This document shows positions 65 to 37,388 of a DNA stretch of 51,228 nucleotides, piece by piece. Each line of letters begins with the position of its first letter. The first letter of the stretch is position 1. The notes under the pieces were generated by a model, which was given only the letters and a program-made list of their open reading frames with translations, was not told where the DNA came from and searched no databases. This DNA is from an uncultured Mycoplasmatota bacterium (GTDB lineage Bacteria > Bacillota_I > Bacilli_A > RF39 > UBA660), in the NCBI GenBank assembly GCA_946488855.1, contig CAMLWC010000004.1, forward strand, positions 1 through 51,228. Direction: 5' to 3'. The position numbers and the translations under genes are program-made.

Positions 65-3000
65 CTAAATATCAAATGTTTCTGTATATTCAATACCATT
101 TACTGTATATGTAACTTTTACTGTATCTGAAAATATTGGCAAAACACTAATCCAAGTATTTCCAATTTTATTGTTCAAAGTAGGATTATACATATCAATC
201 TTTTTTCCATCTGCTTCAACTTTTAAATTAGTTACAGCATTGTTGAAATTGACACTTATATTTAATCCTTTTTTGCCAACATTGACAATTGTTTTATCAT
301 ATACTTTATGACCATCTAAATGCCATCCATCTGCTTGATATTTTAATACATACCATTCAATAGTATAAGCGCCACCTTCATCAACACCATGACTAATTTC
401 ATTTAATGCATCTTTAGTAGATTGCGCTAAATACTTAAATACTTCTTCTTCGCCTAAACCAATGATAACTGGATCAACACCATTTTTAATATCATTAGCT
501 TGTTCTTCAGTTAATCCACTAACATTAATAGTTAAAGATACTTTATTACCTTCTTCATCTTCTAAAGCGTTGTAATAATAATCTGTTGGATAACCTTCTC
601 CATCTACAGGTCTTACATATTGAGGTTTTAAAATATATGCATATGTACCACTAGCTTCTTGTTCTAAATAAATTGGTTTAATTGTAGCATCAGCAGTTAC
701 ATTTTTATAATTTCCTGCCCAACCATTAAATATATAGATTTTTCCATTTGCTTCATATTCTTTAGTAATATTAGGTTCTTTAGCACTTTCACCTTTTTTA
801 ATTTCTTGAGTAGAAATAATTTGATTATCTTTGTCTAAAAATTTAATTATAAAATATACTGGTTTTACTTTAATTGTTACTTCAATACCTTCAACTACAT
901 TATAGTTTTTAGTATCTTCTGGAGTATATATAACAGTAGTTTTATATTCTCCTTCTGTTAAAACTTTTGTAGTACTTTCTTCAAAAGTAAATCCTTCTGG
1001 TAATTCAACATCTCCTAAAGTTTCACCTTCATTAGCTTCTAAATTAGAAGGAATAGTATAACTTGGAGTTGCTTTAAGAATTTTATAATCTTTAGTAGCA
1101 CCAACTAATACATAATTTCCATCAGATGTAACAACTATTGCTGTATAATTTCCAGCATCAATTGCATTTCCATCTTTTACTTTAACAGTATAGTCAATAC
1201 CATTTTCAACTATAGCTGTTGGAATATGCATTTTGCCATCATATGTATAATCGCCTCTATCAATCCAAGTAACTTTTATTTCTTTTGCTACTATTTCATA
1301 TTCAAATGTTGTATTTGTTAATGTATAATTTTTATTTGTTGTACTTGCTAGTGCTGTATATTTTCCTACATCAATTGCATTTCCTTCTTCTACATCAACT
1401 GTTATTTCAATACCATTTTCTGCACCTGCTGTTGGTAATTGTTTTTCACCATTGTATATAAAAGTACCTCTGTCAATCCAATATACTCTAACTTCTTTTG
1501 GACTAATAGTCATTGTTGCTGTTAATGTAATTTCACCATTATAATTTTCATTACCAGTTATAATAGCTTTTACTTCATATTCTCCTACGTCTACTTTATC
1601 ATTATTTTCATAACTTACATTAAAGCCTTCTGGTAAATTATTTACTGATAATGATTTTTCTGTTCCATCATATACAAATGTTTCATCATTAAATTCAATA
1701 CCTAATTCTTTGATGTCTTCTTCTGTTATTGTTTTTGCAATTATTTCATATTCTTGTCTATTATTTGTTAATGTATAATTTTTATTTGTTGTACTTGCTA
1801 CTGCTGTATATTTTCCTACATCAATACCATTTCCACCTTCTACATCAACTGTTATTTCAACACCTTCAACTGGTTGTGGTTTGAATACTTGTTTTTCTCC
1901 ATTATATATAAATGGTCCTCTATCAATCCAAGTTAATCTTATTTCTTTTGGACTAATAGTCATTGTTGCTGTTAATGTAATTTCACCATTATAATTTTCA
2001 TTACCAGTTATAATAGCTTTTACTTCATATTCTCCTACGTCTACTTTATCATTATTTTCATAACTTACATTAAAGCCTTCTGGTAAATTATTTACTGATA
2101 ATGATTTTTCTGTTCCATCATATACAAATGTTTCATCATTAAATTCAATACCTAATTCTTTGATGTCTTCTTCTGTTATTGTTTTTGCAATTATTTCATA
2201 TTCTTGTCTATTATTTGTTAATGTATAATTTTTATTTGTTGTACTTGCTACTGCTGTATATTTTCCTACATCAATACCATTTCCACCTTCTACATCAACT
2301 GTTATTTCAACACCTTCAACTGGTTGTGGTTTGAATACTTGTTTTTCTCCATTATATATAAATGGTCCTCTATCAATCCAAGTTAATCTTATTTCTTTTG
2401 GACTAATAGTCATTGTTGCTGTTAATGTAATTTCACCATTATAATTTTCATTACCAGTTATAATAGCTTTTACTTCATATTCTCCAGCATCTACTTTACC
2501 ATTATTTTCATAACTTATATTAAATTCTTCTGGTAAATTATTTACTGATAATGATTTTTCTGTTCCATCATATATAAATGTTGCACCATTAAATTCGATA
2601 CCTAATTCTTTAATATCTTCTTCTGTTATTGTTTTTGAAGTGATTGAATATACACCATCAACAAATGTAACATTGTAGTTTTCATTTGTCCAAGTACCAG
2701 TAATTGCATATTTACCAGCAGGTGTAGTGTTAGTTACTTCAGTATTTAATTGTACACCAATTTCGTTACCATTATAAGCCATTTCTAAAGCATTTGATGT
2801 TAATGGTTTAACTTCATCTTTATAAATTGCTTCTACATTATTAATAGTAACTGTTACATTTCTTTTTAATACTTCAAATTCAAAATTTTCGGTAGTTTCA
2901 TTATTTAAATTATCTTTTGCTACCACTGTTATTGTATATTTTCCAAATTGATTTGGATTTACATCATTTGTTACTTCAATAGTAACTCCTTCTGTTCCAT

Positions 3001-3646
3001 AAAATTCATCAGTTGCTTTAACACAATCTTCAAAATTAATTAATTCATCATAAACAACCATTGAAGTTGCACATGAACTAAAATCAATTGAAGGATTTTT
3101 ACTATATTCTGGATATTCTTCTTCATCATCTGGATTAGTTCCATTTTCAATTTCTTCTTCATTAGTATAACCATCATTATCGTTATCACCAGTTGGATTT
3201 AATACAATGATAGTTCTTGTAGCTGTAGTTGTATGTCCTGCTTTATCACTAGTTGTATATGTGATTGTATGTGTTCCAACTTCTAATTTAGTTGTATCAG
3301 TAATAGATGCTGTAACACTTACTACATCATTATCATCACTTGCTTTAACACCAGTCATGACATCATAATTTTGACCAAACAAAATTGTTACTGTTTTTGG
3401 ATTAATTTCGATTACTGGTGCTTCATCAACATTAATCACTGGACGATCATTATTGTCTTCTTCTTGTTCATCATCTTGTTCTTCATCTTTATTGTCATCT
3501 TGTTCATTATCAGTATCTTTATCTTCTTCACCTTGGCCTGGCACTTCTACTGGATCTAATGTAGATGGAGCTGGATTAGCAAATGTAAAGATAAATAAGC
3601 CTAATAAAATAAATAATATAATTGCTATAATTTTCTTTTTATCCAT
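65..3646 (-). CDS. Large repeat-rich cell-surface protein (signal-anchor, acidic linker, Ig-like DUF5011-type domains, MBG/YDG-type repeats)
   Basis: 1193-aa ORF. It has an N-terminal hydrophobic segment IIAIILFILLGLFIFTF and a D/E/N/Q-rich linker. Two ~75-aa segments resemble DUF5011 Ig-like folds (GTHTITYTTSDKAGHTTTATRTIIVL; GKYTITVVAKDNLNNETTENFEFEVL). An Asp-rich loop DNDNDGYTNEEEIENGTNPDD is followed by repeated F-x-YDGTEK...G-x-Y...NY units typical of MBG repeats. There is no C-terminal LPXTG. GGGAGG SD upstream of the ATG. Confidence 0.8.
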   Translation of the reverse strand: MDKKKIIAIILFILLGLFIFTFANPAPSTLDPVEVPGQGEEDKDTDNEQDDNKDEEQDDEQEEDNNDRPVINVDEAPVIEINPKTVTILFGQNYDVMTGVKASDDNDVVSVTASITDTTKLEVGTHTITYTTSDKAGHTTTATRTIIVLNPTGDNDNDGYTNEEEIENGTNPDDEEEYPEYSKNPSIDFSSCATSMVVYDELINFEDCVKATDEFYGTEGVTIEVTNDVNPNQFGKYTITVVAKDNLNNETTENFEFEVLKRNVTVTINNVEAIYKDEVKPLTSNALEMAYNGNEIGVQLNTEVTNTTPAGKYAITGTWTNENYNVTFVDGVYSITSKTITEEDIKELGIEFNGATFIYDGTEKSLSVNNLPEEFNISYENNGKVDAGEYEVKAIITGNENYNGEITLTATMTISPKEIRLTWIDRGPFIYNGEKQVFKPQPVEGVEITVDVEGGNGIDVGKYTAVASTTNKNYTLTNNRQEYEIIAKTITEEDIKELGIEFNDETFVYDGTEKSLSVNNLPEGFNVSYENNDKVDVGEYEVKAIITGNENYNGEITLTATMTISPKEIRLTWIDRGPFIYNGEKQVFKPQPVEGVEITVDVEGGNGIDVGKYTAVASTTNKNYTLTNNRQEYEIIAKTITEEDIKELGIEFNDETFVYDGTEKSLSVNNLPEGFNVSYENNDKVDVGEYEVKAIITGNENYNGEITLTATMTISPKEVRVYWIDRGTFIYNGEKQLPTAGAENGIEITVDVEEGNAIDVGKYTALASTTNKNYTLTNTTFEYEIVAKEIKVTWIDRGDYTYDGKMHIPTAIVENGIDYTVKVKDGNAIDAGNYTAIVVTSDGNYVLVGATKDYKILKATPSYTIPSNLEANEGETLGDVELPEGFTFEESTTKVLTEGEYKTTVIYTPEDTKNYNVVEGIEVTIKVKPVYFIIKFLDKDNQIISTQEIKKGESAKEPNITKEYEANGKIYIFNGWAGNYKNVTADATIKPIYLEQEASGTYAYILKPQYVRPVDGEGYPTDYYYNALEDEEGNKVSLTINVSGLTEEQANDIKNGVDPVIIGLGEEEVFKYLAQSTKDALNEISHGVDEGGAYTIEWYVLKYQADGWHLDGHKVYDKTIVNVGKKGLNISVNFNNAVTNLKVEADGKKIDMYNPTLNNKIGNTWISVLPIFSDTVKVTYTVNGIEYTETFDI
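1286..2635 (-). repeat. Three tandem 450-bp (150-aa) coding repeat units inside the surface protein gene
   Basis: Unit N-termini (KTITEEDIK, plus-strand tgttattgtttt) occur at 2635, 2185 and 1735, i.e. an exact 450-bp period. By eye, roughly 1494-2036 is base-for-base identical to 1944-2486. Confidence 0.9.
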
Positions 3647-25661: not shown

Positions 25662-26639
25662 TTATAATTTCTTACTAGTTTGTTTAGTTAGTGTATCAAG
25701 AAAACTAGCAGTTGATAATTTAATCTTATCCGTAAACTCTGTTTCAATATTTAAACCTATTATGTCTAAACATTCTTGATAACTTTTTTCATTTATTGCT
25801 TTACTATATTCCATTAGTTTATTAATAAAATCATTATCATTTTTATATGTTTCTAGTATGTATATAGCTATAGGATACCCTAATACATTCCAGGTATCTT
25901 CAATAATAAGTTTTTTTTCAGTAGCGTATTGTTCAAAAAAATCTAACATTTTTTCATAATTATTATCTTTAAAAATTTTATTATATGCTTCTAAACTTAT
26001 GTTTTTCTCTTTTTTATATAATAAAATTAATTTATAAATATAATATACTTTATCCATCAGCTTACAAATCATACGAGCCATAAATTTCATAAACATTTCC
26101 ACGTCATTATGATATACTGTATTTTTTAATTTTTCACAATATACAAACTCAATTCCATAAGATAACGATTCTGTTAACAAATCACTTACAAAATTTCTTC
26201 TAGATTCTGGTTGATTTAAATAATGCATAACTTCATGAATTAATACACAACCATCAGTAATATTATCATTTAAATATATTTCAATTATTCTCTTTTTATC
26301 TTTGTCATAGTATGAGGTTCCAACTCTTGTTATTGAAGCATTTTTATCTATTTTTTTAAATATTAAAATTCCACTTTCAATTAATTCTTTTATCGAAATA
26401 TTCATATGATACTTATCCAAAAATTGTTGAACCAAAGAGATATTTTCTTCCAAACTAACATAAGAAAAATCATATTTTTCGAACTTAATATTTTTTATTA
26501 CTTCAACATACTTATAATAGATATAATTTGATAAATTCCATAAATTTTCTATTTCATCTAATATAAATGGATCATATGAAAAAAATGATAAATTTTCAAA
26601 CCAATCTTTGTAATCTTTAATTCTTTCTTGGCTAACCAT
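25662..26639 (-). CDS. Hypothetical HExxH (gluzincin-like) protein
   Basis: 325 aa. VLIHEVMHYLNQ, followed 18 residues later by TESLSYGIE (possible third ligand). TGCTATAAT extended -10 upstream. Only 46 nt from proS. Confidence 0.45.
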   Translation of the reverse strand: MVSQERIKDYKDWFENLSFFSYDPFILDEIENLWNLSNYIYYKYVEVIKNIKFEKYDFSYVSLEENISLVQQFLDKYHMNISIKELIESGILIFKKIDKNASITRVGTSYYDKDKKRIIEIYLNDNITDGCVLIHEVMHYLNQPESRRNFVSDLLTESLSYGIEFVYCEKLKNTVYHNDVEMFMKFMARMICKLMDKVYYIYKLILLYKKEKNISLEAYNKIFKDNNYEKMLDFFEQYATEKKLIIEDTWNVLGYPIAIYILETYKNDNDFINKLMEYSKAINEKSYQECLDIIGLNIETEFTDKIKLSTASFLDTLTKQTSKKL

Positions 26640-26745
26640 ATTTTCACCGCCTAAATTTGTAAATATTATAGCATAGAATATTGCGAAAATGTTAAATATA
26701 TGTTATTATTAGTATGTAAGGAAAAAACTTGCATATAATAAAAAA

Positions 26746-26829
26746 GGGAACATTCAGTTTTGCAATGTTGAATGTCTACCTTATAAATTTTAGGTTGCAC
26801 TCATTTGCTAAATGAGTGTCATTTTTTTA
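26746..26829 (+). ncRNA. Candidate antisense RNA (putative type I antitoxin) convergent with a small toxin-like ORF
   Basis: TATAAT at 26734-26739. 5' hairpin ACATTCA-N12-TGAATGT. Strong terminator CACTCATTT-gct-AAATGAGTG (26798-26818) plus T7 (26822-26828). The terminator abuts the stop codon of the minus-strand ORF. Confidence 0.35.
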
Positions 26830-26911
26830 TTTCTATTATCATTATTATAAGAAGTGATAAAATGATAATGATATGTTTTAGGACTTTTATTATAAAAAGT
26901 CTTTTTGACAT
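26819..26911 (-). CDS. 30-aa hydrophobic peptide, candidate type I toxin
   Basis: Not in the ORF track. Encodes MSKRLFIIKVLKHIIIILSLLIIMIIEIKK with GGAGG SD 9 nt upstream. The SD region sits next to the TCTCTTAAGAGA palindrome. Confidence 0.45.
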   Translation of the reverse strand: MSKRLFIIKVLKHIIIILSLLIIMIIEIKK

Positions 26912-26975
26912 TTTATCAAACCTCCTCTCTTAAGAGATTCGGTAGACACTCAACAACTAAATATTCCTACTAACA

Positions 26976-27004
26976 AGTATACTATAAATTAACTTATTAT
27001 TCAA
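26976..27004 (-). promoter_or_regulatory. Sigma-A-like promoter for the small toxin-like ORF
   Basis: The minus strand reads TTGAAT (27004-26999), 17-nt spacer, TATACT (26981-26976), which predicts a ~58-nt 5'UTR. Confidence 0.45.
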
Positions 27005-27068: not shown

Positions 27069-28838
27069 TTATTTTAAACTTTCAAATCCACTTCTTTTAA
27101 ACATTTTTTCTAATTCATATTTAGTAAACGTAATAATAGTAGGTCTTCCATGAGGACAATTAAATGGATTATGACATTTTCTTAATTCATTAATCAATTC
27201 TTCCATTTCGTTAATACTTAAATTAGTATTTGCTTTAATACTTGCTTTACAAGCTAAAGTAGCAGATAAATGATCATTAAATTTAGCTAAATCAAAATCT
27301 TTTTCTTTATGAATAACTGCTTCAATTATTTTTCTAATTTGTAAATCTTCAAAACCTTTAGTTAACCAAATAGGATGTGATTTAATAATAACTGAATTAA
27401 TACCAAATTCTTCAATATCAAACCCCATATTATTTAAAAAATCAAAATTTTCTTTTAAAATAATATATTCATTATTAGATAATTCTATTGTAAGCGGTAA
27501 TAAAAGTGGTATTTTATCTTTAACAGGATTGGATAATTTATCTAAAAACAATTCATAATTTACTCTTTCTTTAGCTGCATGTTGATCAATTAAATACATA
27601 CCTATTTCATTTTGACAAACTATATATGTTCCATGAACCAAACCAATAGGATATAATAGTGGTAATCTTTCTTCATATTTTGGTTCTTCTTCTTTTATTT
27701 GATTATCAAAATCTAAAGTTATCTCTTCATATTTTGTTTTTTCTATTTTAGGTGATTCATTTAATTCTTCTTTAGGTTCTATTATTTCTAATTTTTCTTC
27801 TACAATTAATTCAGTATCAAAATCATTTATAGGTTGTTCTATTACTGGAATTAATGTTTGTCTATTTAATTTATTAACAATTGTTTTTTTAACTAAATCT
27901 AATAATTCTTCTAATTTACTAAATTTAATATCCATTTTAGTAGGATGAATATTAACATCTACTAAACTAGGATCTAATTCAATATTAATAACAACAATAG
28001 GATATCTATTATCTGGTTTATAAGAATGATAACTATAATTTATTATTCTATTTAATTCTTGATTTCTAACTACTCTACCATTTACTAAAGTAATAATATG
28101 ATTTCTTCCTGCCCTATTTACTTCAGGTAGACTTATAAAACCACTTATAATATAATCATCATCTTCATTATTTATTTCTAACATTTTACGCGCTACATCC
28201 ATACCATATATACTACTTATAGTTTTAAGCAAATTATTAGAACCATCTGTTTTTAAAATAGTATTTCCATTATTAATTAAAGTAAATCTAATTTCTGGAT
28301 GAGATAACGCAATTTTATTAACGTAATCAGTTATACTAGCAAGTTCAGTATATAAACTTTTCAAATGTTTTAATCTAGCAGGAGTATTATAAAATAATTC
28401 AGTTATTTCAAAAATAGTGCCTTTTCTAGCCTCAGTATTTTCTACTTTAATAATTTTACCACCTTTAATATTAACTAATGTTCCTATTTCTCCTTGACTA
28501 GTTTTAAGTACTACATTACTAACTGAAGCAATACTAGCTAAAGCTTCTCCTCTAAAACCTAAAGTATTAATATTATATAAATCAGATTCATCTTTTATTT
28601 TACTTGTAGCATGTCTATTAAAAGATAAAATAGCATCTTCTTTATCCATACCTATTCCATTATCAGTTACTTTAATTAAACTAGTTCCTGCTTCTTTTAA
28701 TTCAATTTTTATTTCACTACTATTAGCATCAATACTATTTTCAACTAATTCTTTTACAACTGAAGCACATCTTTCAACAACTTCTCCAGCTGCTATTTTA
28801 TTAGCTAAAATCTCATCCATTATTTTTATTTTACTCAT
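27069..28838 (-). CDS. mutL: DNA mismatch repair protein MutL
   Basis: GHKL ATPase motifs (ELVENSIDA, DNGIGM, GFRGEALASI), C-terminal dimerisation/endonuclease region, 589 aa. Confidence 0.95.
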   Translation of the reverse strand: MSKIKIMDEILANKIAAGEVVERCASVVKELVENSIDANSSEIKIELKEAGTSLIKVTDNGIGMDKEDAILSFNRHATSKIKDESDLYNINTLGFRGEALASIASVSNVVLKTSQGEIGTLVNIKGGKIIKVENTEARKGTIFEITELFYNTPARLKHLKSLYTELASITDYVNKIALSHPEIRFTLINNGNTILKTDGSNNLLKTISSIYGMDVARKMLEINNEDDDYIISGFISLPEVNRAGRNHIITLVNGRVVRNQELNRIINYSYHSYKPDNRYPIVVINIELDPSLVDVNIHPTKMDIKFSKLEELLDLVKKTIVNKLNRQTLIPVIEQPINDFDTELIVEEKLEIIEPKEELNESPKIEKTKYEEITLDFDNQIKEEEPKYEERLPLLYPIGLVHGTYIVCQNEIGMYLIDQHAAKERVNYELFLDKLSNPVKDKIPLLLPLTIELSNNEYIILKENFDFLNNMGFDIEEFGINSVIIKSHPIWLTKGFEDLQIRKIIEAVIHKEKDFDLAKFNDHLSATLACKASIKANTNLSINEMEELINELRKCHNPFNCPHGRPTIITFTKYELEKMFKRSGFESLK

Positions 28839-28885: not shown

Positions 28886-29560
28886 TTATTTTTGATGTTC
28901 TTTTATAACTTCTTTTTCTTTTAACATATTATTAAAAAATCTATTTAATAGTTCTAAATTGCCATTCATAGCACTCATAATTGAACCATTCATTAAATTA
29001 TTTTTATCTTCTTCAGTAACATTTGAAAAATCTAATTCATAATCAAAACCTAAATTTTTATTTATAAACACTACCACTTGTCTTAAATATTCTCGCATTA
29101 TTCTACCATTACCTTCTCTAAATGGATGCACAACATTTAATTCAGAGTAATAATAAGATAAAAAAACTACTATGTCTTCTTTTGTTTTAATTTTTTTTAA
29201 ATCATCAAATATTTTATCAAATAACATATTTAAATACTTATATATAAATTCTGGGCGACAAAAAGGTGTATTACCTTTAGTCATATTTTCATTTCTTATT
29301 TTTCCAGCAAATGGATAAATATGTTCAAAAACTTGACGATGTAAATCAATAAAATAATTTACACTAAATAATTCTTTAGAACAAGGTAATGGTTTAGTTT
29401 GTAATTTTACTAACATTAATGTAGTAACATTACGTTCTATTTTATCTAAAGTTTTTTGATCTTGAATATCAAATTTATTAATCAATACATTACTTTCAGG
29501 ATAACAATACTTAGATTGATAACTTAAAGCTTCATTTACTCTACTATTTACTTCTACCAT
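28886..29560 (-). CDS. Fic/DOC family protein (putative AMPylating toxin)
   Basis: Canonical Fic motif HPFREGNGRIMR. 224 aa. The start overlaps the upstream small ORF by 17 nt. Confidence 0.85.
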   Translation of the reverse strand: MVEVNSRVNEALSYQSKYCYPESNVLINKFDIQDQKTLDKIERNVTTLMLVKLQTKPLPCSKELFSVNYFIDLHRQVFEHIYPFAGKIRNENMTKGNTPFCRPEFIYKYLNMLFDKIFDDLKKIKTKEDIVVFLSYYYSELNVVHPFREGNGRIMREYLRQVVVFINKNLGFDYELDFSNVTEEDKNNLMNGSIMSAMNGNLELLNRFFNNMLKEKEVIKEHQK

Positions 29561-29765
29561 TTTCTTGCTCCATATTTTTTGTTTCTTTAACTAACCCATA
29601 CAATAAAGAATCAACAGCATCAGTACCTAATCTATCTTTATATTTCTGATATACTCTAGAAACAATATCCTTCTCATGTTTAGGAATACTATGACCTTCT
29701 ATTTCTACATTACCAATTGCTTTATCCAATTCTCTTTCTAAATCTTTTTCTTGCACAACTATCAC
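29544..29765 (-). CDS. VbhA-like small antitoxin of the Fic protein
   Basis: 73 aa, directly upstream of and overlapping the Fic gene. It contains NVEIEG, which resembles the (S/T)xxxE(G/N) inhibitory motif but has Asn at the first position. GTG start, TGGTATAAT extended -10 just upstream. Confidence 0.55.
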   Translation of the reverse strand: MIVVQEKDLERELDKAIGNVEIEGHSIPKHEKDIVSRVYQKYKDRLGTDAVDSLLYGLVKETKNMEQENGRSK

Positions 29766-29783
29766 CTATTTAAATTATACCAT

Positions 29784-29810
29784 AAAAAAGTAAGTTTCCT
29801 TACTTTTTTT
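29784..29810. terminator. Rho-independent terminator after pheT
   Basis: AAGTAAG-tttc-CTTACTT hairpin flanked by A6 and T7. It abuts the pheT stop. Confidence 0.7.
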
Positions 29811-32170
29811 TACATATTTCTCAATTTATAACCTCTATTTTCAACATCGTTTATTATTTTTTCAAATAATGTATTAACTTCTTCATCAGTTAAGGTTTTA
29901 GTATTATCATTAAATGTTAAAGAATAAGCAATAGATTTTTCATTATTACCAACATTTTCACCTTCATATACATCGAATATATTAATATCAGTTAATAATC
30001 TACCACCTGATTTTTTTATAATATCTAATACTTCTTTAGATTCAGTATCTTTAGGCATAATAAAGGCCATATCTTTTATAATACTTGGATATTTTGATAT
30101 TTCTTTATATTTAATAGGCTTAATATTAGTAATTAAACTATCCATACTTAATTCACAAATATATATTTCATCTTTAGAATCTGTTGGATGAATTCTACCT
30201 ATTATTCCTATTTCTTTTCGATCTAATAAAATTCTAGCAGACATACCAGGATGCATATTAGGTATATTATCAGTTTTAAAACTATATCTATTTTTAAGCC
30301 CTAAATAATCTAATAAATTTTCTAATATTCCCTTTATTAAATAAAAATCTACTTTAATTTTAGTATTATTCCAACCATTATTAATAAAATTACCCTTCAT
30401 TAAAATGCATATTTTACTTTCTTCAGTATAATTTATGTCATATGTTTTAGCAATTTCATAAATTAAAATGTCGTTTACTTTTCTAGTTTTATTATAATTA
30501 TAAACATTTAATAATGAAGGTATTAATGTAGTTCTTACAACCTCTTTATCATTACTCATTGGATTTGGTAAAATAATATTTTCTTTATTATCATAATTAA
30601 ATTTAAGCATATCTTTAGAAACTAAAGTATATGTTTTAACTTCATTTAATCCTAAAGATCTTAATCTTTTTGAAATTAATTTACGATATTTAACATTACC
30701 AATATATTCACCTTTTTTAATATCTACTTTAGGTAAAGTTGATACTAAATTATGATATCCATACAGCCTTCCTATTTCTTCAGCTATGTCATTAACGTTA
30801 GGATCAATATCCAATCTTCTATTAGGTATTGTTACAATAAATTTATCATTATCTAATTTATACTTAAAATCTAATCTTTCTAGTTCTTTTTTCATATCTT
30901 CTTCGCTTATTGTAATACCCAACATTTTATCAACTTCAGAAGGTTTAAATTCAACTATTTTTTCTTTTTTATCTATTTCATCATGAATAACCATATCACT
31001 TAAAACCTTAGCATCAGCATATTTTTCTAATAAATGACAAGCCCTTAAAATTGCTTTATTAGTATATTCATAATTTAATCCTTTACCATATCTAATAGAT
31101 GCTTCACTTCTTAAATCTAATCTATTAGCCGTATTTCTAATACTTACCGCATCAAATATAGCAGATTCAATTAAAATAGTTTTTGTATTTTCATCTACTT
31201 CAGTGTTTTCTCCACCCATAACACCAGCAATACAAACAGGATTATTACCATCAGTTATAACTATATCATTAGTTAATTTTCTTTCTTTTCCATCTAAAGT
31301 AACAATATTTTCATTATTTGCTTCTCTTACTAAAATATTATTACCTAACTTATCTTTATCAAAGAAATGTAGAGGTTGACCATATTCTAACATTACATAA
31401 TTAGAAATATCTACTACATTATTAATTGGTCTCATACCTGCTGCTAGTAATCTTTTTTTTATAAAATCTGGTGATTCTTTTATTTTTACATCAGTAACCA
31501 TTTTAGCTAAATAATAAGGACATTTCTTAGTTTCAACTTTTAAATTAAAATGATTTTTAATGGAATCTTCTATTTCTTTAAATGAATCATCAGGTAAAGT
31601 TACTTTTCTATTTAAAATAGCTGCGATTTCATAAGCAAAACCAATATGATAATAACAATCATTATTTCTATGTTTATGAACATCTAATTCATATAAAGTA
31701 TCGTCTAATCCTAAATATTTAATAGGATCATCACCTACTTTAGCGTTACTATCTAATTCTTCAATACCTCTATTATAAGCTTCTTCTGTTTTCTCTTCTA
31801 AACCTAATTCATATAATGCACATATCATACCATTAGATTCTTGATTTCTAATTTTACTTTTTTTAATTTCAAAATTGCCTGGTAATACTGCTCCTGGTAA
31901 AGCAACAATTACTTTTAATCCTTTTCTTACATTAGGAGCCCCACATACAATTTGGGTAACCTTACTACCAACATCTACTTGACAAACATGTAAATGGTCG
32001 CTATCAGGATGGTCAATACAATCAATTACTTCACCAATAACTAAATTATCGATATGATTAGTAATTACCTTTTCAACATTAATACCAGCTTTAGTTATTT
32101 TAACAGCTAATTCTTTTAAATCTTGATCTGATATATCAATATAATCTTTAACCCACTCTAAACTTATCAT
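29810..32170 (-). CDS. pheT: Phenylalanine--tRNA ligase beta subunit
   Basis: 786 aa with N-terminal tRNA-binding domain, B3/4, B5 and FDX-ACB domains. Immediately follows pheS. Confidence 0.95.
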   Translation of the reverse strand: MISLEWVKDYIDISDQDLKELAVKITKAGINVEKVITNHIDNLVIGEVIDCIDHPDSDHLHVCQVDVGSKVTQIVCGAPNVRKGLKVIVALPGAVLPGNFEIKKSKIRNQESNGMICALYELGLEEKTEEAYNRGIEELDSNAKVGDDPIKYLGLDDTLYELDVHKHRNNDCYYHIGFAYEIAAILNRKVTLPDDSFKEIEDSIKNHFNLKVETKKCPYYLAKMVTDVKIKESPDFIKKRLLAAGMRPINNVVDISNYVMLEYGQPLHFFDKDKLGNNILVREANNENIVTLDGKERKLTNDIVITDGNNPVCIAGVMGGENTEVDENTKTILIESAIFDAVSIRNTANRLDLRSEASIRYGKGLNYEYTNKAILRACHLLEKYADAKVLSDMVIHDEIDKKEKIVEFKPSEVDKMLGITISEEDMKKELERLDFKYKLDNDKFIVTIPNRRLDIDPNVNDIAEEIGRLYGYHNLVSTLPKVDIKKGEYIGNVKYRKLISKRLRSLGLNEVKTYTLVSKDMLKFNYDNKENIILPNPMSNDKEVVRTTLIPSLLNVYNYNKTRKVNDILIYEIAKTYDINYTEESKICILMKGNFINNGWNNTKIKVDFYLIKGILENLLDYLGLKNRYSFKTDNIPNMHPGMSARILLDRKEIGIIGRIHPTDSKDEIYICELSMDSLITNIKPIKYKEISKYPSIIKDMAFIMPKDTESKEVLDIIKKSGGRLLTDINIFDVYEGENVGNNEKSIAYSLTFNDNTKTLTDEEVNTLFEKIINDVENRGYKLRNM

Positions 32171-33224: not shown

Positions 33225-33395
33225 TAAAAAAGCAACTCATCCTAAAGGACGAATTGCTCGTGGTACCACCTTAATTTATACTCAAAGACTATAATGCGTC
33301 ACCAAATAAACTCCAAAGGTGAATTCTTAAAAGATTATTAAATGTTTCCACCAACCACATTCTCTCTATTAATAATTACTTTTAATACTACTTCT
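33225..33395 (-). promoter_or_regulatory. T-box riboswitch leader, Phe (UUC) specifier, controlling pheST
   Basis: The minus strand carries the AGAGA stem I motif (33365-33361) and AAGAATTCACC with UUC followed by a purine (33323-33321). The T-box sequence AAGGTGGTACCACG is at 33270-33259. The terminator GCAATTCGTCC-ttt-AGGATGAGTTGC is followed by T7. Confidence 0.85.
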
Positions 33396-33405
33396 TTTTC
33401 ATCGT

Positions 33406-33648
33406 TTATCTTACTTTTGTTTCTTCTATTGTTTGTGTTACTTGTAAATTACTTAATCCAGCAATCAACTCATCTAAACCTTGACTAGGTGTATTAAAAG
33501 ATGAAGCTGGAGGTAATTCTTGAAGATATGTTATTACTTCTTCTAATTTACCACATTGTTGAGCTAAAGAAATACCTTTAGCACAAACTTCAGTTAATCT
33601 TCCGCCTCGACCTAAATTATAATTAGCGGCATTATTAAATTCTTGCAT
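33406..33648 (-). CDS. Hypothetical 80-aa protein, compositionally atypical
   Basis: AGGAG SD 8 nt upstream, next to the stop of the preceding gene. The protein is rich in G/A/L/Q and poor in K/I/N compared with its neighbours. No family recognised. Confidence 0.5.
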   Translation of the reverse strand: MQEFNNAANYNLGRGGRLTEVCAKGISLAQQCGKLEEVITYLQELPPASSFNTPSQGLDELIAGLSNLQVTQTIEETKVR

Positions 33649-36608: not shown

Positions 36609-37388
36609 ATGGATAATAATTTAACTGAGTATAATTCTGATTGTACTAATGACTGTCTTTGTCAAGTAATAAAATGTTTAATCGATATTTGTGAAACTGG
36701 ACCTACTGGGCCTACCGGACCTACCGGGCCTCAAGGGCCATGTGGTTGTACAGGATGTACTGGGCCTCAAGGTGCTACTGGGCCTCAAGGAAGAACTGGA
36801 GATACAGGAGTTCAAGGATTAACTGGACCTACTGGGCCTCAAGGTGCTACTGGACCTACTGGACCTCAAGGCGCTACTGGAGCTACTGGACCTACTGGAC
36901 CTACTGGACCTACTGGGCCTCAAGGCGCTACTGGACCTACTGGACCTCAAGGAGAATCATTTCAAAGTTATGCTATGGTTCATGACTTATCAAATTCAAC
37001 TGTTCCTAAACAAAATCCAATTTTATTTCAAAATACTAACTTATCAAATAAAATATCATATAGTCCAATAACTGGTGATTTTTCTATACCAGAAAAAGGA
37101 ATTTACATAATTCATTGGTGGGTTAATGTTAGAAACAAAGGAAAAGAATGTGAAGATAAAGCATTAAGTATAGAATTCAGAAAATTCTGGCCAAATGCCG
37201 AATTAATTGCACATTCATCAACACATAACAAAGTATCATGTTGTCAAACTGGAACAATTAATGGAAATGCTATTTTTGAAGCTACAGCTGGAGGAAGTTA
37301 TAGATTAGTAAATGCTTCTGAAGTAGATTTCGAATTAGTTCCAAATGATTTATATTCAGGATGTGTATCTATTACTAGAATAAATTAA
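36609..37388 (+). CDS. Collagen-like triple-helix repeat protein with globular C-terminal domain (BclA-like exosporium/spore-surface protein)
   Basis: 30-aa Cys-rich N-terminus ([17 protein letters not shown]), 29 uninterrupted GXY triplets (mostly GPT/GPQ/GAT), then a ~140-aa beta-rich C-terminal domain as in BclA. Confidence 0.8.
36699..36959 (+). repeat. GXY collagen-like coding microrepeat (29 triplets)
   Basis: Repeated ggacctactgg[ag]cctcaaggtgctact-type 9/27-bp units. It is a local GC-rich outlier. Confidence 0.9.

Follow-up and report, generated by a model that had tools for sequence, protein, structure and literature searches.

A probable type I toxin-antitoxin-like module with a closed mRNA and a 3'-overlapping antisense RNA in an uncultured Mycoplasmatota bacterium

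The DNA analyzed here (contig CAMLWC010000004.1 of GenBank assembly GCA_946488855.1, positions 1 to 51,228, from an uncultured Mycoplasmatota bacterium; the whole 51,228-nucleotide stretch is called the window below) carries mutL (27069-28838, minus strand) and, on the same strand, an open reading frame (ORF) for a 325-aa HExxH protein (25662-26639). The spacer of 430 bp between them contains a self-contained module of ~325 bp (26681-27004), which encodes a 30-aa hydrophobic peptide on the minus strand and is predicted to give rise to a convergent antisense RNA from the plus strand. A sequence-only reading of this DNA had likened the locus to toxin-antitoxin (TA) systems of type I because of its hydrophobic ORF, closed mRNA and convergent, 3'-overlapping antisense RNA. 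Covariation, selection on the ORF, conserved antisense signals and dispersal support this view, and the module probably represents a new type I TA-like family with a sequestered mRNA 5' end. The features of the module, in the order in which the peptide mRNA is read, are the following.

26999-27004, minus strand: -35 box TTGAAT of the peptide mRNA promoter; position and 17-nt spacing kept in the family.
26976-26981, minus strand: -10 box TATACT of the same promoter; predicted transcription start ~26968-26971.
26941-26967, minus strand: 5' arm of the closure, GGAAUAUUUAGUUGUUGAGUGUCUACC; from the minimum free energy (MFE) fold, the RNAalifold consensus and covariation.
26921-26937, minus strand: palindrome and Shine-Dalgarno (SD) sequence GGAGG (26925-26921), UCUCUUAAGAGA; a small hairpin, which here reaches over the SD sequence.
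26819-26911, minus strand: 30-aa peptide ORF, MSKRLFIIKVLKHIIIILSLLIIMIIEIKK, counted with its stop codon.
26850-26864, minus strand: coding-region segment CAUUUUAUCACUUCU, a potential pairing partner of the region from SD to AUG (26925-26909); 15-bp helix in RNAalifold, with moderate support.
26797-26828, plus strand: predicted intrinsic terminator of the antisense RNA, consisting of the hairpin 26797-26819 and the T-run 26822-26828; overlaps the stop codon and the last Lys codons.
26781-26796, unstranded: A/U-rich linker, predicted to be unpaired in the closed mRNA; from the mRNA fold and the centroid fold of the plus-strand RNA.
26747-26780, minus strand: 3' arm of the closure, containing the local hairpin ACAUUCA/UGAAUGU (26776-26749); from folds, covariation and duplex test.
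26740-26745, minus strand: U-run ending the peptide mRNA; kept in alignments A1 and A2.
26712-26736, plus strand: antisense 5' stem-loop GUAUGUAAGG-AAAAAA-CUUGCAUAU; past the 3' end of the peptide mRNA and present in every tandem unit.
26681-26709, plus strand: antisense promoter, TTGCGA (26681-26686), 17 nt, extended -10 element TGtTATTAT (26701-26709).
26716-26828, plus strand: predicted antisense RNA of ~113 nt, deduced from promoter, terminator and strand-asymmetric hairpins.

The module reaches to 26681 since the antisense promoter is located at 26681-26709. The 51-kb window contained neither the ORF nor the arms a second time. Outside the window, at least ~100 homologues were obtained from related metagenome-assembled genomes and from gut and rumen metagenomes, often in tandem and in many gene neighborhoods. 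Sister genomes carry the module downstream of mutL, singly or as a tandem array of up to three copies (L009 has two, L010 and L011 three each), and the HExxH protein was found on gut metagenome contigs with an identical spacer. Judged by MutL in a scan of species representatives, the window belongs with uncultured gut Bacilli near 'Candidatus Faecisoma merdavium', whose genus NCBI assigns to Mycoplasmatota incertae sedis. The tandem unit runs from the minus-strand promoter to ~60 nt past the U-run of the mRNA; this far stretch therefore belongs to the module. Divergent members were searched with nhmmer and with a covariance model (CM), R1, built from the close copies. Four other genomes (L026, L027, L036 and L063) contain divergent full-length members, among them one on the other strand between mutL and obg (L063) and one upstream of sufC (L026). 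A scan of metagenomes with a DNA pattern comprising part of the 5' arm, the SD sequence and the ATG gave at least 120 loci (95 of 120 full-length), and the CM alignment (A6) holds 99 matches, 94 of them distinct. The flanking genes vary: 126 flanking ORFs fall into 106 clusters, with topA, ftsK, polC-like, queA and udp-like genes among them, and tandem pairs were present at 12 of 87 loci. Synteny with MutL, HExxH, ProS, HIT, SufC or Obg was essentially absent among the metagenome loci. As the neighbors differ from locus to locus, the module is autonomous and dispersed, tied neither to mutL nor to any partner protein.

On the minus strand, TTGAAT (27004-26999) and TATACT (26981-26976) are separated by 17 nt and had been proposed to form a promoter. 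Promoter-like hexamers are common in DNA of ~22% G+C (27 sites in the region vs 16.5±3.7 in shuffles), so that single matches carry no weight alone, and this one is not significant by itself. However, its position is kept throughout the family: the -10 box, most commonly TATAAT, ends 6-9 nt ahead of the 5' arm in 77 of 89 flanks, and the spacer measures 17 nt in 74 of 89 cases. This fixed distance places the predicted 5' end of the mRNA 1-4 nt before the closing helix. The leader is ~58 nt long. Its GGAGG (26925-26921) adjoins the palindrome TCTCTTAAGAGA (26937-26926), as described in the sequence-only reading, and the ATG follows 9 nt further downstream. At the other end of the transcript, the hairpin 26776-26749 and the U-run constitute the mRNA's own predicted terminator. 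Hairpin and T-run were present on this strand as proposed, but as a terminator they are weak, with two G-C pairs, and stayed below the scan criteria. Both ends of the mRNA would be buried in the closing helix.

The minus-strand transcript (26970-26738) folds with an MFE of -68.2 kcal/mol, compared to -34.4±3.9 kcal/mol for dinucleotide shuffles (z = -8.57; 0 of 200 shuffles as good). In this fold, 27 nt near the 5' end (26967-26941) pair with ~34 nt located just before the U-run (26780-26747). The long-range pairing between 5' and 3' end postulated earlier is hence part of the MFE structure. In a 17-sequence alignment, 21 of 51 pairs were changed on both sides, while shuffles gave 5.3±2.0. As helix 1 was out of register in a MAFFT alignment of divergent members (A2), a CM alignment and a duplex test were used for these. 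Among the 94 distinct sequences of the CM alignment, 91.7% of cells were paired (81.4% in shuffles). Double changes were seen in 47 of 51 pairs, compared to 29.3±2.0 in shuffles (0 of 500 reached this value) and to 17-23 when the partners were slid by 1-3 columns. The two closure helices were 97.6% and 95.1% paired, with compensatory changes in 24 of 27 pairs; two examples are CG:30/UA:23/UG:19/AU:8 and UA:36/CG:32. In the duplex test, which needs no alignment, cognate arms paired at -35.1±3.5 kcal/mol and non-cognate arms at -24.9±2.8 kcal/mol, and the cognate partner was better in 81 of 81 cases. The covariation shows that closure of the mRNA is real. Furthermore, G·U pairs are numerous in the closure and correspond to A·C mismatches on the other strand, which assigns the closure to the minus-strand RNA.

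Additional structure was predicted around the translation start. A short hairpin immediately 5' of the SD sequence covaries between UA and CG (helix 3). In the RNAalifold consensus, the region from SD to AUG (26925-26909) forms a 15-bp helix with 26864-26850 inside the ORF, and the helices between start region and ORF (helices 4 and 5) were 84-88% paired, with some compensatory changes. In the window copy the SD sequence has an unpaired probability of 0.07, compared to 0.33 with shuffled flanks; here the palindrome allows the hairpin to slide over the SD sequence. Over 87 members, the predicted accessibility of the AUG was 0.22 (0.39 with shuffled flanks). Occlusion of the start region is therefore plausible in these fold models and moderately supported.

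For the opposite strand, a promoter of the form TTGnnn-17-TGnTAnnAT was located just past the 3' end of the mRNA in 14 of 14 inspected copies. Across the family an antisense promoter was found at a fixed place in 77 of 80 distinct flanks, in every case with TGn and a spacer of 17 nt, and in distant members it attains the full consensus TTGACA-17-TATAAT. The perfect hairpin abutting the stop codon (26797-26819), which had been described together with its plus-strand T7, forms 10 pairs and is followed by this T-run on the plus strand. It is the sole terminator-like site in 1.6 kb, where 0.1 would be expected. Stems of this hairpin mostly measure 10-13 bp in the family, and in 64 of 78 members the 9 nt that follow on the antisense strand include at least 6 T, while the tail on the peptide strand is T-poor. 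The T-run was also kept in 21 of 33 members without a Lys-Lys peptide end, showing that it is not a mere by-product of AAA codons. Among close copies, the hairpin exists in two unrelated sequence versions, both of which are hairpin-forming.

The two hairpins of the putative antisense RNA show a clear strand asymmetry. In the terminator hairpin, 79 positions favor the antisense strand (G·U there, A·C on the peptide strand) and 18 the reverse, and in 62 of 74 cases the antisense strand gives the more stable hairpin (p = 1.4e-10). The 5' hairpin (26712-26736), which lies outside the peptide mRNA, behaves alike (G·U 82 vs 21 in favor of the antisense strand; 50 vs 8, p = 2.9e-9). This asymmetry means that selection acts on both hairpins as RNA of the antisense strand. 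Three independent lines, namely promoter, terminator and strand asymmetry, thus lend support to a plus-strand transcript, which is predicted to start near 26716 and to end at ~26828. By construction, such a cis-encoded RNA is perfectly complementary to the final ~90 nt of the peptide mRNA (26740-26828). The convergent antisense RNA of the sequence-only reading is upheld by its conserved promoter and terminator, but its promoter had been placed wrongly by ~30 nt, at 26734 rather than at 26681-26709. The plus-strand TATAAT at 26734 was rejected as it is without a -35 box, varies among copies and lies inside the selected hairpin. The antisense-strand G·U selection in this conserved hairpin at 26712-26736 likewise points to a start further upstream.

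The 30-aa ORF at 26911-26819, absent from the gene calls and recognized in the sequence-only reading, was confirmed. Among close copies the 30-codon frame was intact in 13 of 13, with changes that are synonymous or conservative (I/L/V, K/R, F/Y, H/Y). In codon 27 (26831-26833), the window copy has Glu and the 12 other close copies have Val. A few distant members likewise have a Glu close to where the hydrophobic stretch ends on its C-terminal side (e.g. ...LVIEIKK, ...IIVEIKK). GGAGG and a start codon were present in all members of the family except two matches cut by the contig end, and a frame of 23-38 codons was open in ~90 of 97 full-length members, the few others being frameshifted or shortened copies. 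The open frame itself was no part of the search pattern. In total, 79 distinct peptides of 27-31 aa were collected, which share a basic N-terminus, a hydrophobic core of ~20 residues and often a KK end, and fall into three related forms.

Form 1, 30-31 aa: MxK[KR]xF[IV]IKVLR[YH]I.IIL.LL..M.IVIKK
Form 2, 29 aa: MxKKDLLI.FLILIIILLIV.LMIL.IKK
Form 3, 27 aa: MxKKDFLI.SLI.IIFLLIALLFT.V[IK]

Within length classes, the ratio of nonsynonymous to synonymous polymorphism (pN/pS) was 0.31-0.53, and the +1 frame was closed in all. This comparison of sequences shows purifying selection on the ORF.

Some copies of the module have decayed. The remnants L222:782-1133 (minus strand, two copies) and L267:1795-1967 (plus strand) consist of the antisense gene only, plus the last codons of the ORF. 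They keep the terminator hairpin, the 3'-arm region, the 5' hairpin and the antisense promoter, while peptide promoter, 5' arm, SD sequence and start codon are gone. Both L222 remnants are arranged in tandem behind an intact module, and the L267 remnant is located ~120 nt upstream of one. These copies support a TA-like interpretation anecdotally.

Searches of databases gave no known family for the module. No Rfam family reached its gathering score, and at E<=10 only three noise-level matches were obtained (E 1.1-8.7, far below gathering). Six peptides gave noise only against Pfam and NCBIfam, the exact peptide sequence is not on record, and phmmer returned 0 matches among 1.84 billion protein representatives. 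In the sequence-only reading, too, the peptide resembled no named toxin. No match was found by blastn in phage and plasmid collections, and a looser DNA pattern applied to viral contigs yielded 107 stretches, all by chance and without an nhmmer match. A literature search gave no report of a type I TA system for this lineage.

In its layout, the module resembles known type I systems. Type I TA loci are known for tandem repeats and hydrophobicity, and in Gram-positive bacteria the pattern is that the antisense RNA overlaps the 3' end (PMC8594479). Toxins of this class are small proteins, mostly hydrophobic membrane peptides of fewer than 60 aa that harm the cell on overexpression, and their synthesis is repressed by the RNA at the level of translation or mRNA stability; the putative toxin of the module has 30 aa, with a basic N-terminus and a hydrophobic core of ~20 residues. 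Of the properties that make up the type I class, a paired antisense RNA gene is indicated by the sequence (promoter in 77/80, terminator in 64/78, two G·U-biased hairpins), and base-pairing of antitoxin and toxin mRNA by the perfect cis overlap of ~90 nt. The Fst/RNA II system (par of pAD1 and chromosomal par-like loci of Firmicutes) shares with the module convergent promoters and a ~30-aa membrane peptide with a single helix. In Fst/par, a 5' upstream helix (5'-UH) sequesters the extreme 5' end and is needed for RNA stability, and a stem-loop (5'-SL) is located at the ribosome binding site (PMC7472228, PMC5608710). The module has analogous elements, which are not evidence of homology: its closure starts ~1-4 nt from the predicted 5' end and covaries, as does the hairpin adjacent to the SD sequence. 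A terminator hairpin common to both strands at the end of the ORF region is also found in both systems (PMC7472228, PMC5608710). In contrast, the Fst/Ldr signature (Trp between the transmembrane helix and a long charged tail; PXXXG) is missing: none of the 79 peptides, intact or broken, contains a Trp or a PXXXG motif, their C-terminus being KK or absent. Whereas Fst has one shared bidirectional terminator, the module has two separate ones, 26797-26828 (plus strand) and 26776-26740 (minus strand), ~80 nt apart, and its RNAs overlap by ~90 nt. The 5' end of the module mRNA pairs with the very 3' end over 27 bp, unlike in Fst. A second complementarity of the DRa/DRb type, between the non-overlapping 5' part of the antisense RNA and the start region, was not supported (-7.8 vs -6.3 kcal/mol in shuffles).

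The TxpA/RatA, BsrG/SR4, BsrE/SR5 and YonT/SR6 systems of Bacillus subtilis have, like the module, a convergent cis antisense RNA over the toxin mRNA's 3' end, where the last part of the ORF is covered as well (PMC8594479, PMC5848175). Neither peptide nor RNA of the module is similar to TxpA/RatA and BsrE/G/H-type loci in Rfam, Pfam or NCBIfam, and with 27-31 aa the module peptide is shorter. The systems of B. subtilis are located on prophage-like elements, whereas the module family occupies ordinary chromosomal intergenic sites and gave no match in phage or viral collections. The toxin mRNAs of these B. subtilis systems are not known to have a covarying end-to-end closure. Long-distance closure between 5' and 3' end is found in the Gram-negative systems hok/Sok and AapA1/IsoA1, where it results in a stable, translationally inert mRNA (PMC6733600, PMC5416894, PMC9841398). 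AapA1 also has 30 aa. However, the antisense RNA of hok/AapA binds the 5' region or the start of the ORF, and only after 3' trimming, whereas that of the module would overlap the 3' arm itself. The module is without an overlapping leader ORF corresponding to mok of hok, the host phylum is a different one, and no sequence similarity was seen. Opening of the SD sequence by 3' trimming in the manner of hok is unsupported, as predicted SD access barely moves without the 3' arm. Judged by sequence, the module is not a member of the Fst, TxpA/RatA, hok/Sok or AapA families. It joins three known elements, namely the 3' overlap of TxpA/RatA and BsrG/SR4, the 5'-end sequestration and SD stem-loop of Fst/par, and a closure like that of hok/aapA1. 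Distinctive in this arrangement is that the antisense RNA would target one strand of the closing helix of the mRNA.

In the following model, we infer that both RNAs are transcribed, how ribonucleases act, which way regulation runs and that the peptide is toxic; since toxicity and antitoxin action are predictions, we use the label type I TA-like rather than that of a proven TA system. The minus strand would give an mRNA of ~230 nt for a 30-residue membrane peptide with a single helix. Closure and pairing of the start region would keep this message stable and poorly translated, by analogy to Fst RNA I with its 5' upstream helix and to the fold-back of hok and aapA1. From the plus strand, the extended -10 promoter just past the mRNA 3' end would produce the convergent RNA of ~113 nt. 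Pairing of the two RNAs may begin at the unpaired A/U linker (26781-26796), a candidate site of first contact in the predicted folds, or at hairpin loops. The long duplex would then be a substrate of RNase III. RNase III-dependent decay is the action expected in a TxpA/RatA-type layout, by analogy. Displacement of the 5' arm would expose the 5' end to 5'-end-dependent decay, and the outcome would be loss of the mRNA. If the antisense RNA falls, the stable mRNA would be translated and the peptide would insert into the membrane. A bolder version of this model is tentative and, in our estimate, rather doubtful as a whole. It holds that the antisense RNA acts by "unmasking by strand displacement", i.e. 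it invades the 27-bp closing helix instead of blocking the ribosome binding site and so exposes the 5' end to RNase J1/Y and RNase III, and that the module would be the first type I TA family described for gut Bacilli with reduced genomes, spread to many chromosomal sites. The lineage meant is NCBI Mycoplasmatota incertae sedis, 'Ca. Faecisoma' and relatives.

Several observations weigh against a type I TA-like reading or parts of it. Over 87 members, predicted SD accessibility was 0.21, compared to 0.24 with shuffled flanks. Sequestration of the SD sequence, as claimed from sequence alone, is thus clear in the window copy but family-wide not clearly above the control. Removal of the 3' arm hardly altered the predicted accessibility (0.27 for SD, 0.26 for AUG), so the closure does not obviously gate translation; in these models it more likely serves RNA stability. 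An I/L/K-rich peptide is what the composition of a genome of ~22% G+C favors. The pattern used for the metagenome scan demanded part of the 5' arm, the SD sequence and the ATG, and their conservation is in part due to this selection. A CM-fitted alignment leans to the modeled structure, a bias addressed by sliding the partners, by the shuffles and by the duplex test that needs no alignment. Glu27 may be attenuating, and the window copy is possibly weakened. Finally, one locus (L224:732-906, minus strand) keeps promoter, 5' arm, SD sequence, 30-aa ORF and the hairpin after the stop codon, and is without 3' arm, mRNA terminator and antisense promoter. Its ORF would be co-transcribed with the next gene, which makes it a possible counter-example to strict coupling of toxin and antitoxin.

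This copy would suit an ordinary gene for a non-toxic small membrane protein, e.g. a modulator of a transporter or sensor, under the control of a cis-antisense RNA and a structured mRNA. The whole of the computational evidence fits such a gene equally, none of it bearing on toxicity, and a pN/pS of 0.3-0.5 signifies that the peptide sequence matters. We nevertheless regard this explanation as unlikely: the module has no conserved neighbor, is dispersed and occurs in up to three tandem copies, some of its copies have decayed, with only the antisense gene left in L222 and L267, and one mRNA combines a sequestered 5' end with a paired start region. Such features characterize type I TA loci (PMC8594479, PMC7472228), whereas small proteins with a housekeeping role do not usually have them. 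Far less probable are two other explanations. The long imperfect inverted arms of the module and its many intergenic sites would suit a non-coding repeat similar to a miniature inverted-repeat transposable element or a repetitive extragenic palindrome, with functional or mobile arms and an accidental ORF. The arms, however, occur once within the 51-kb window, and arms recurring without the ORF, named beforehand as the sign of such a repeat, were not seen. The ORF is open in ~90 of 97 members and under purifying selection, the many G·U pairs in the arms are a property of RNA rather than of DNA, promoters and terminators are conserved on both strands, and phage and plasmid collections gave no match. 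It is just as improbable that the module is a cis-regulatory leader (leader peptide or attenuator) of the HExxH gene, although it lies directly upstream on the same strand. The downstream genes differ at almost every locus, some members are opposite in strand to their neighbor, in tandem arrays no unit but the last adjoins the gene, and past the module an extended -10 promoter and an SD sequence belong to the HExxH gene itself.

Other features of the window were noted. The 325-aa HExxH ORF (25662-26639, minus strand) had no Pfam match even at E<=1. Directly upstream of mutL, an ORF of the Fic/DOC family (28886-29560, minus strand; PF02661, E = 6e-16) follows a 73-aa ORF (29544-29765), which overlaps it and has no Pfam match. 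By sequence the two may form a Fic toxin/antitoxin-like pair, and the same arrangement is present in L001. A T-box leader (33242-33411, minus strand; RF00230, 96.5 bits vs a gathering score of 93) is located upstream of the pheS/pheT region (pheT 29810-32170). Three tandem repeats of a 450-bp unit (94% matches, 1276-2637) within a 1193-aa ORF (65-3646, minus strand) are probably repeated domains of ~150 aa of a large surface protein. At 36775-36954, a repeat of period 9/27, ACTGGACCT, occurs in ~14 copies and may encode a collagen-like triplet repeat.

If confirmed, the module would constitute a new and well-populated family among type I TA systems, with at least ~100 sequences and at least 79 distinct peptides. 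Its hosts are uncultured, genome-reduced Bacilli of gut and rumen, in which gene callers miss the ORF; CM R1 with alignment A6 provides an annotation model for seemingly empty stretches of these genomes. Since covariation constrains the RNA side to an unusual degree, the family would be a natural case for studying how end closure, a 3'-overlapping antisense RNA and ribonucleases act together in bacteria of the Gram-positive type.

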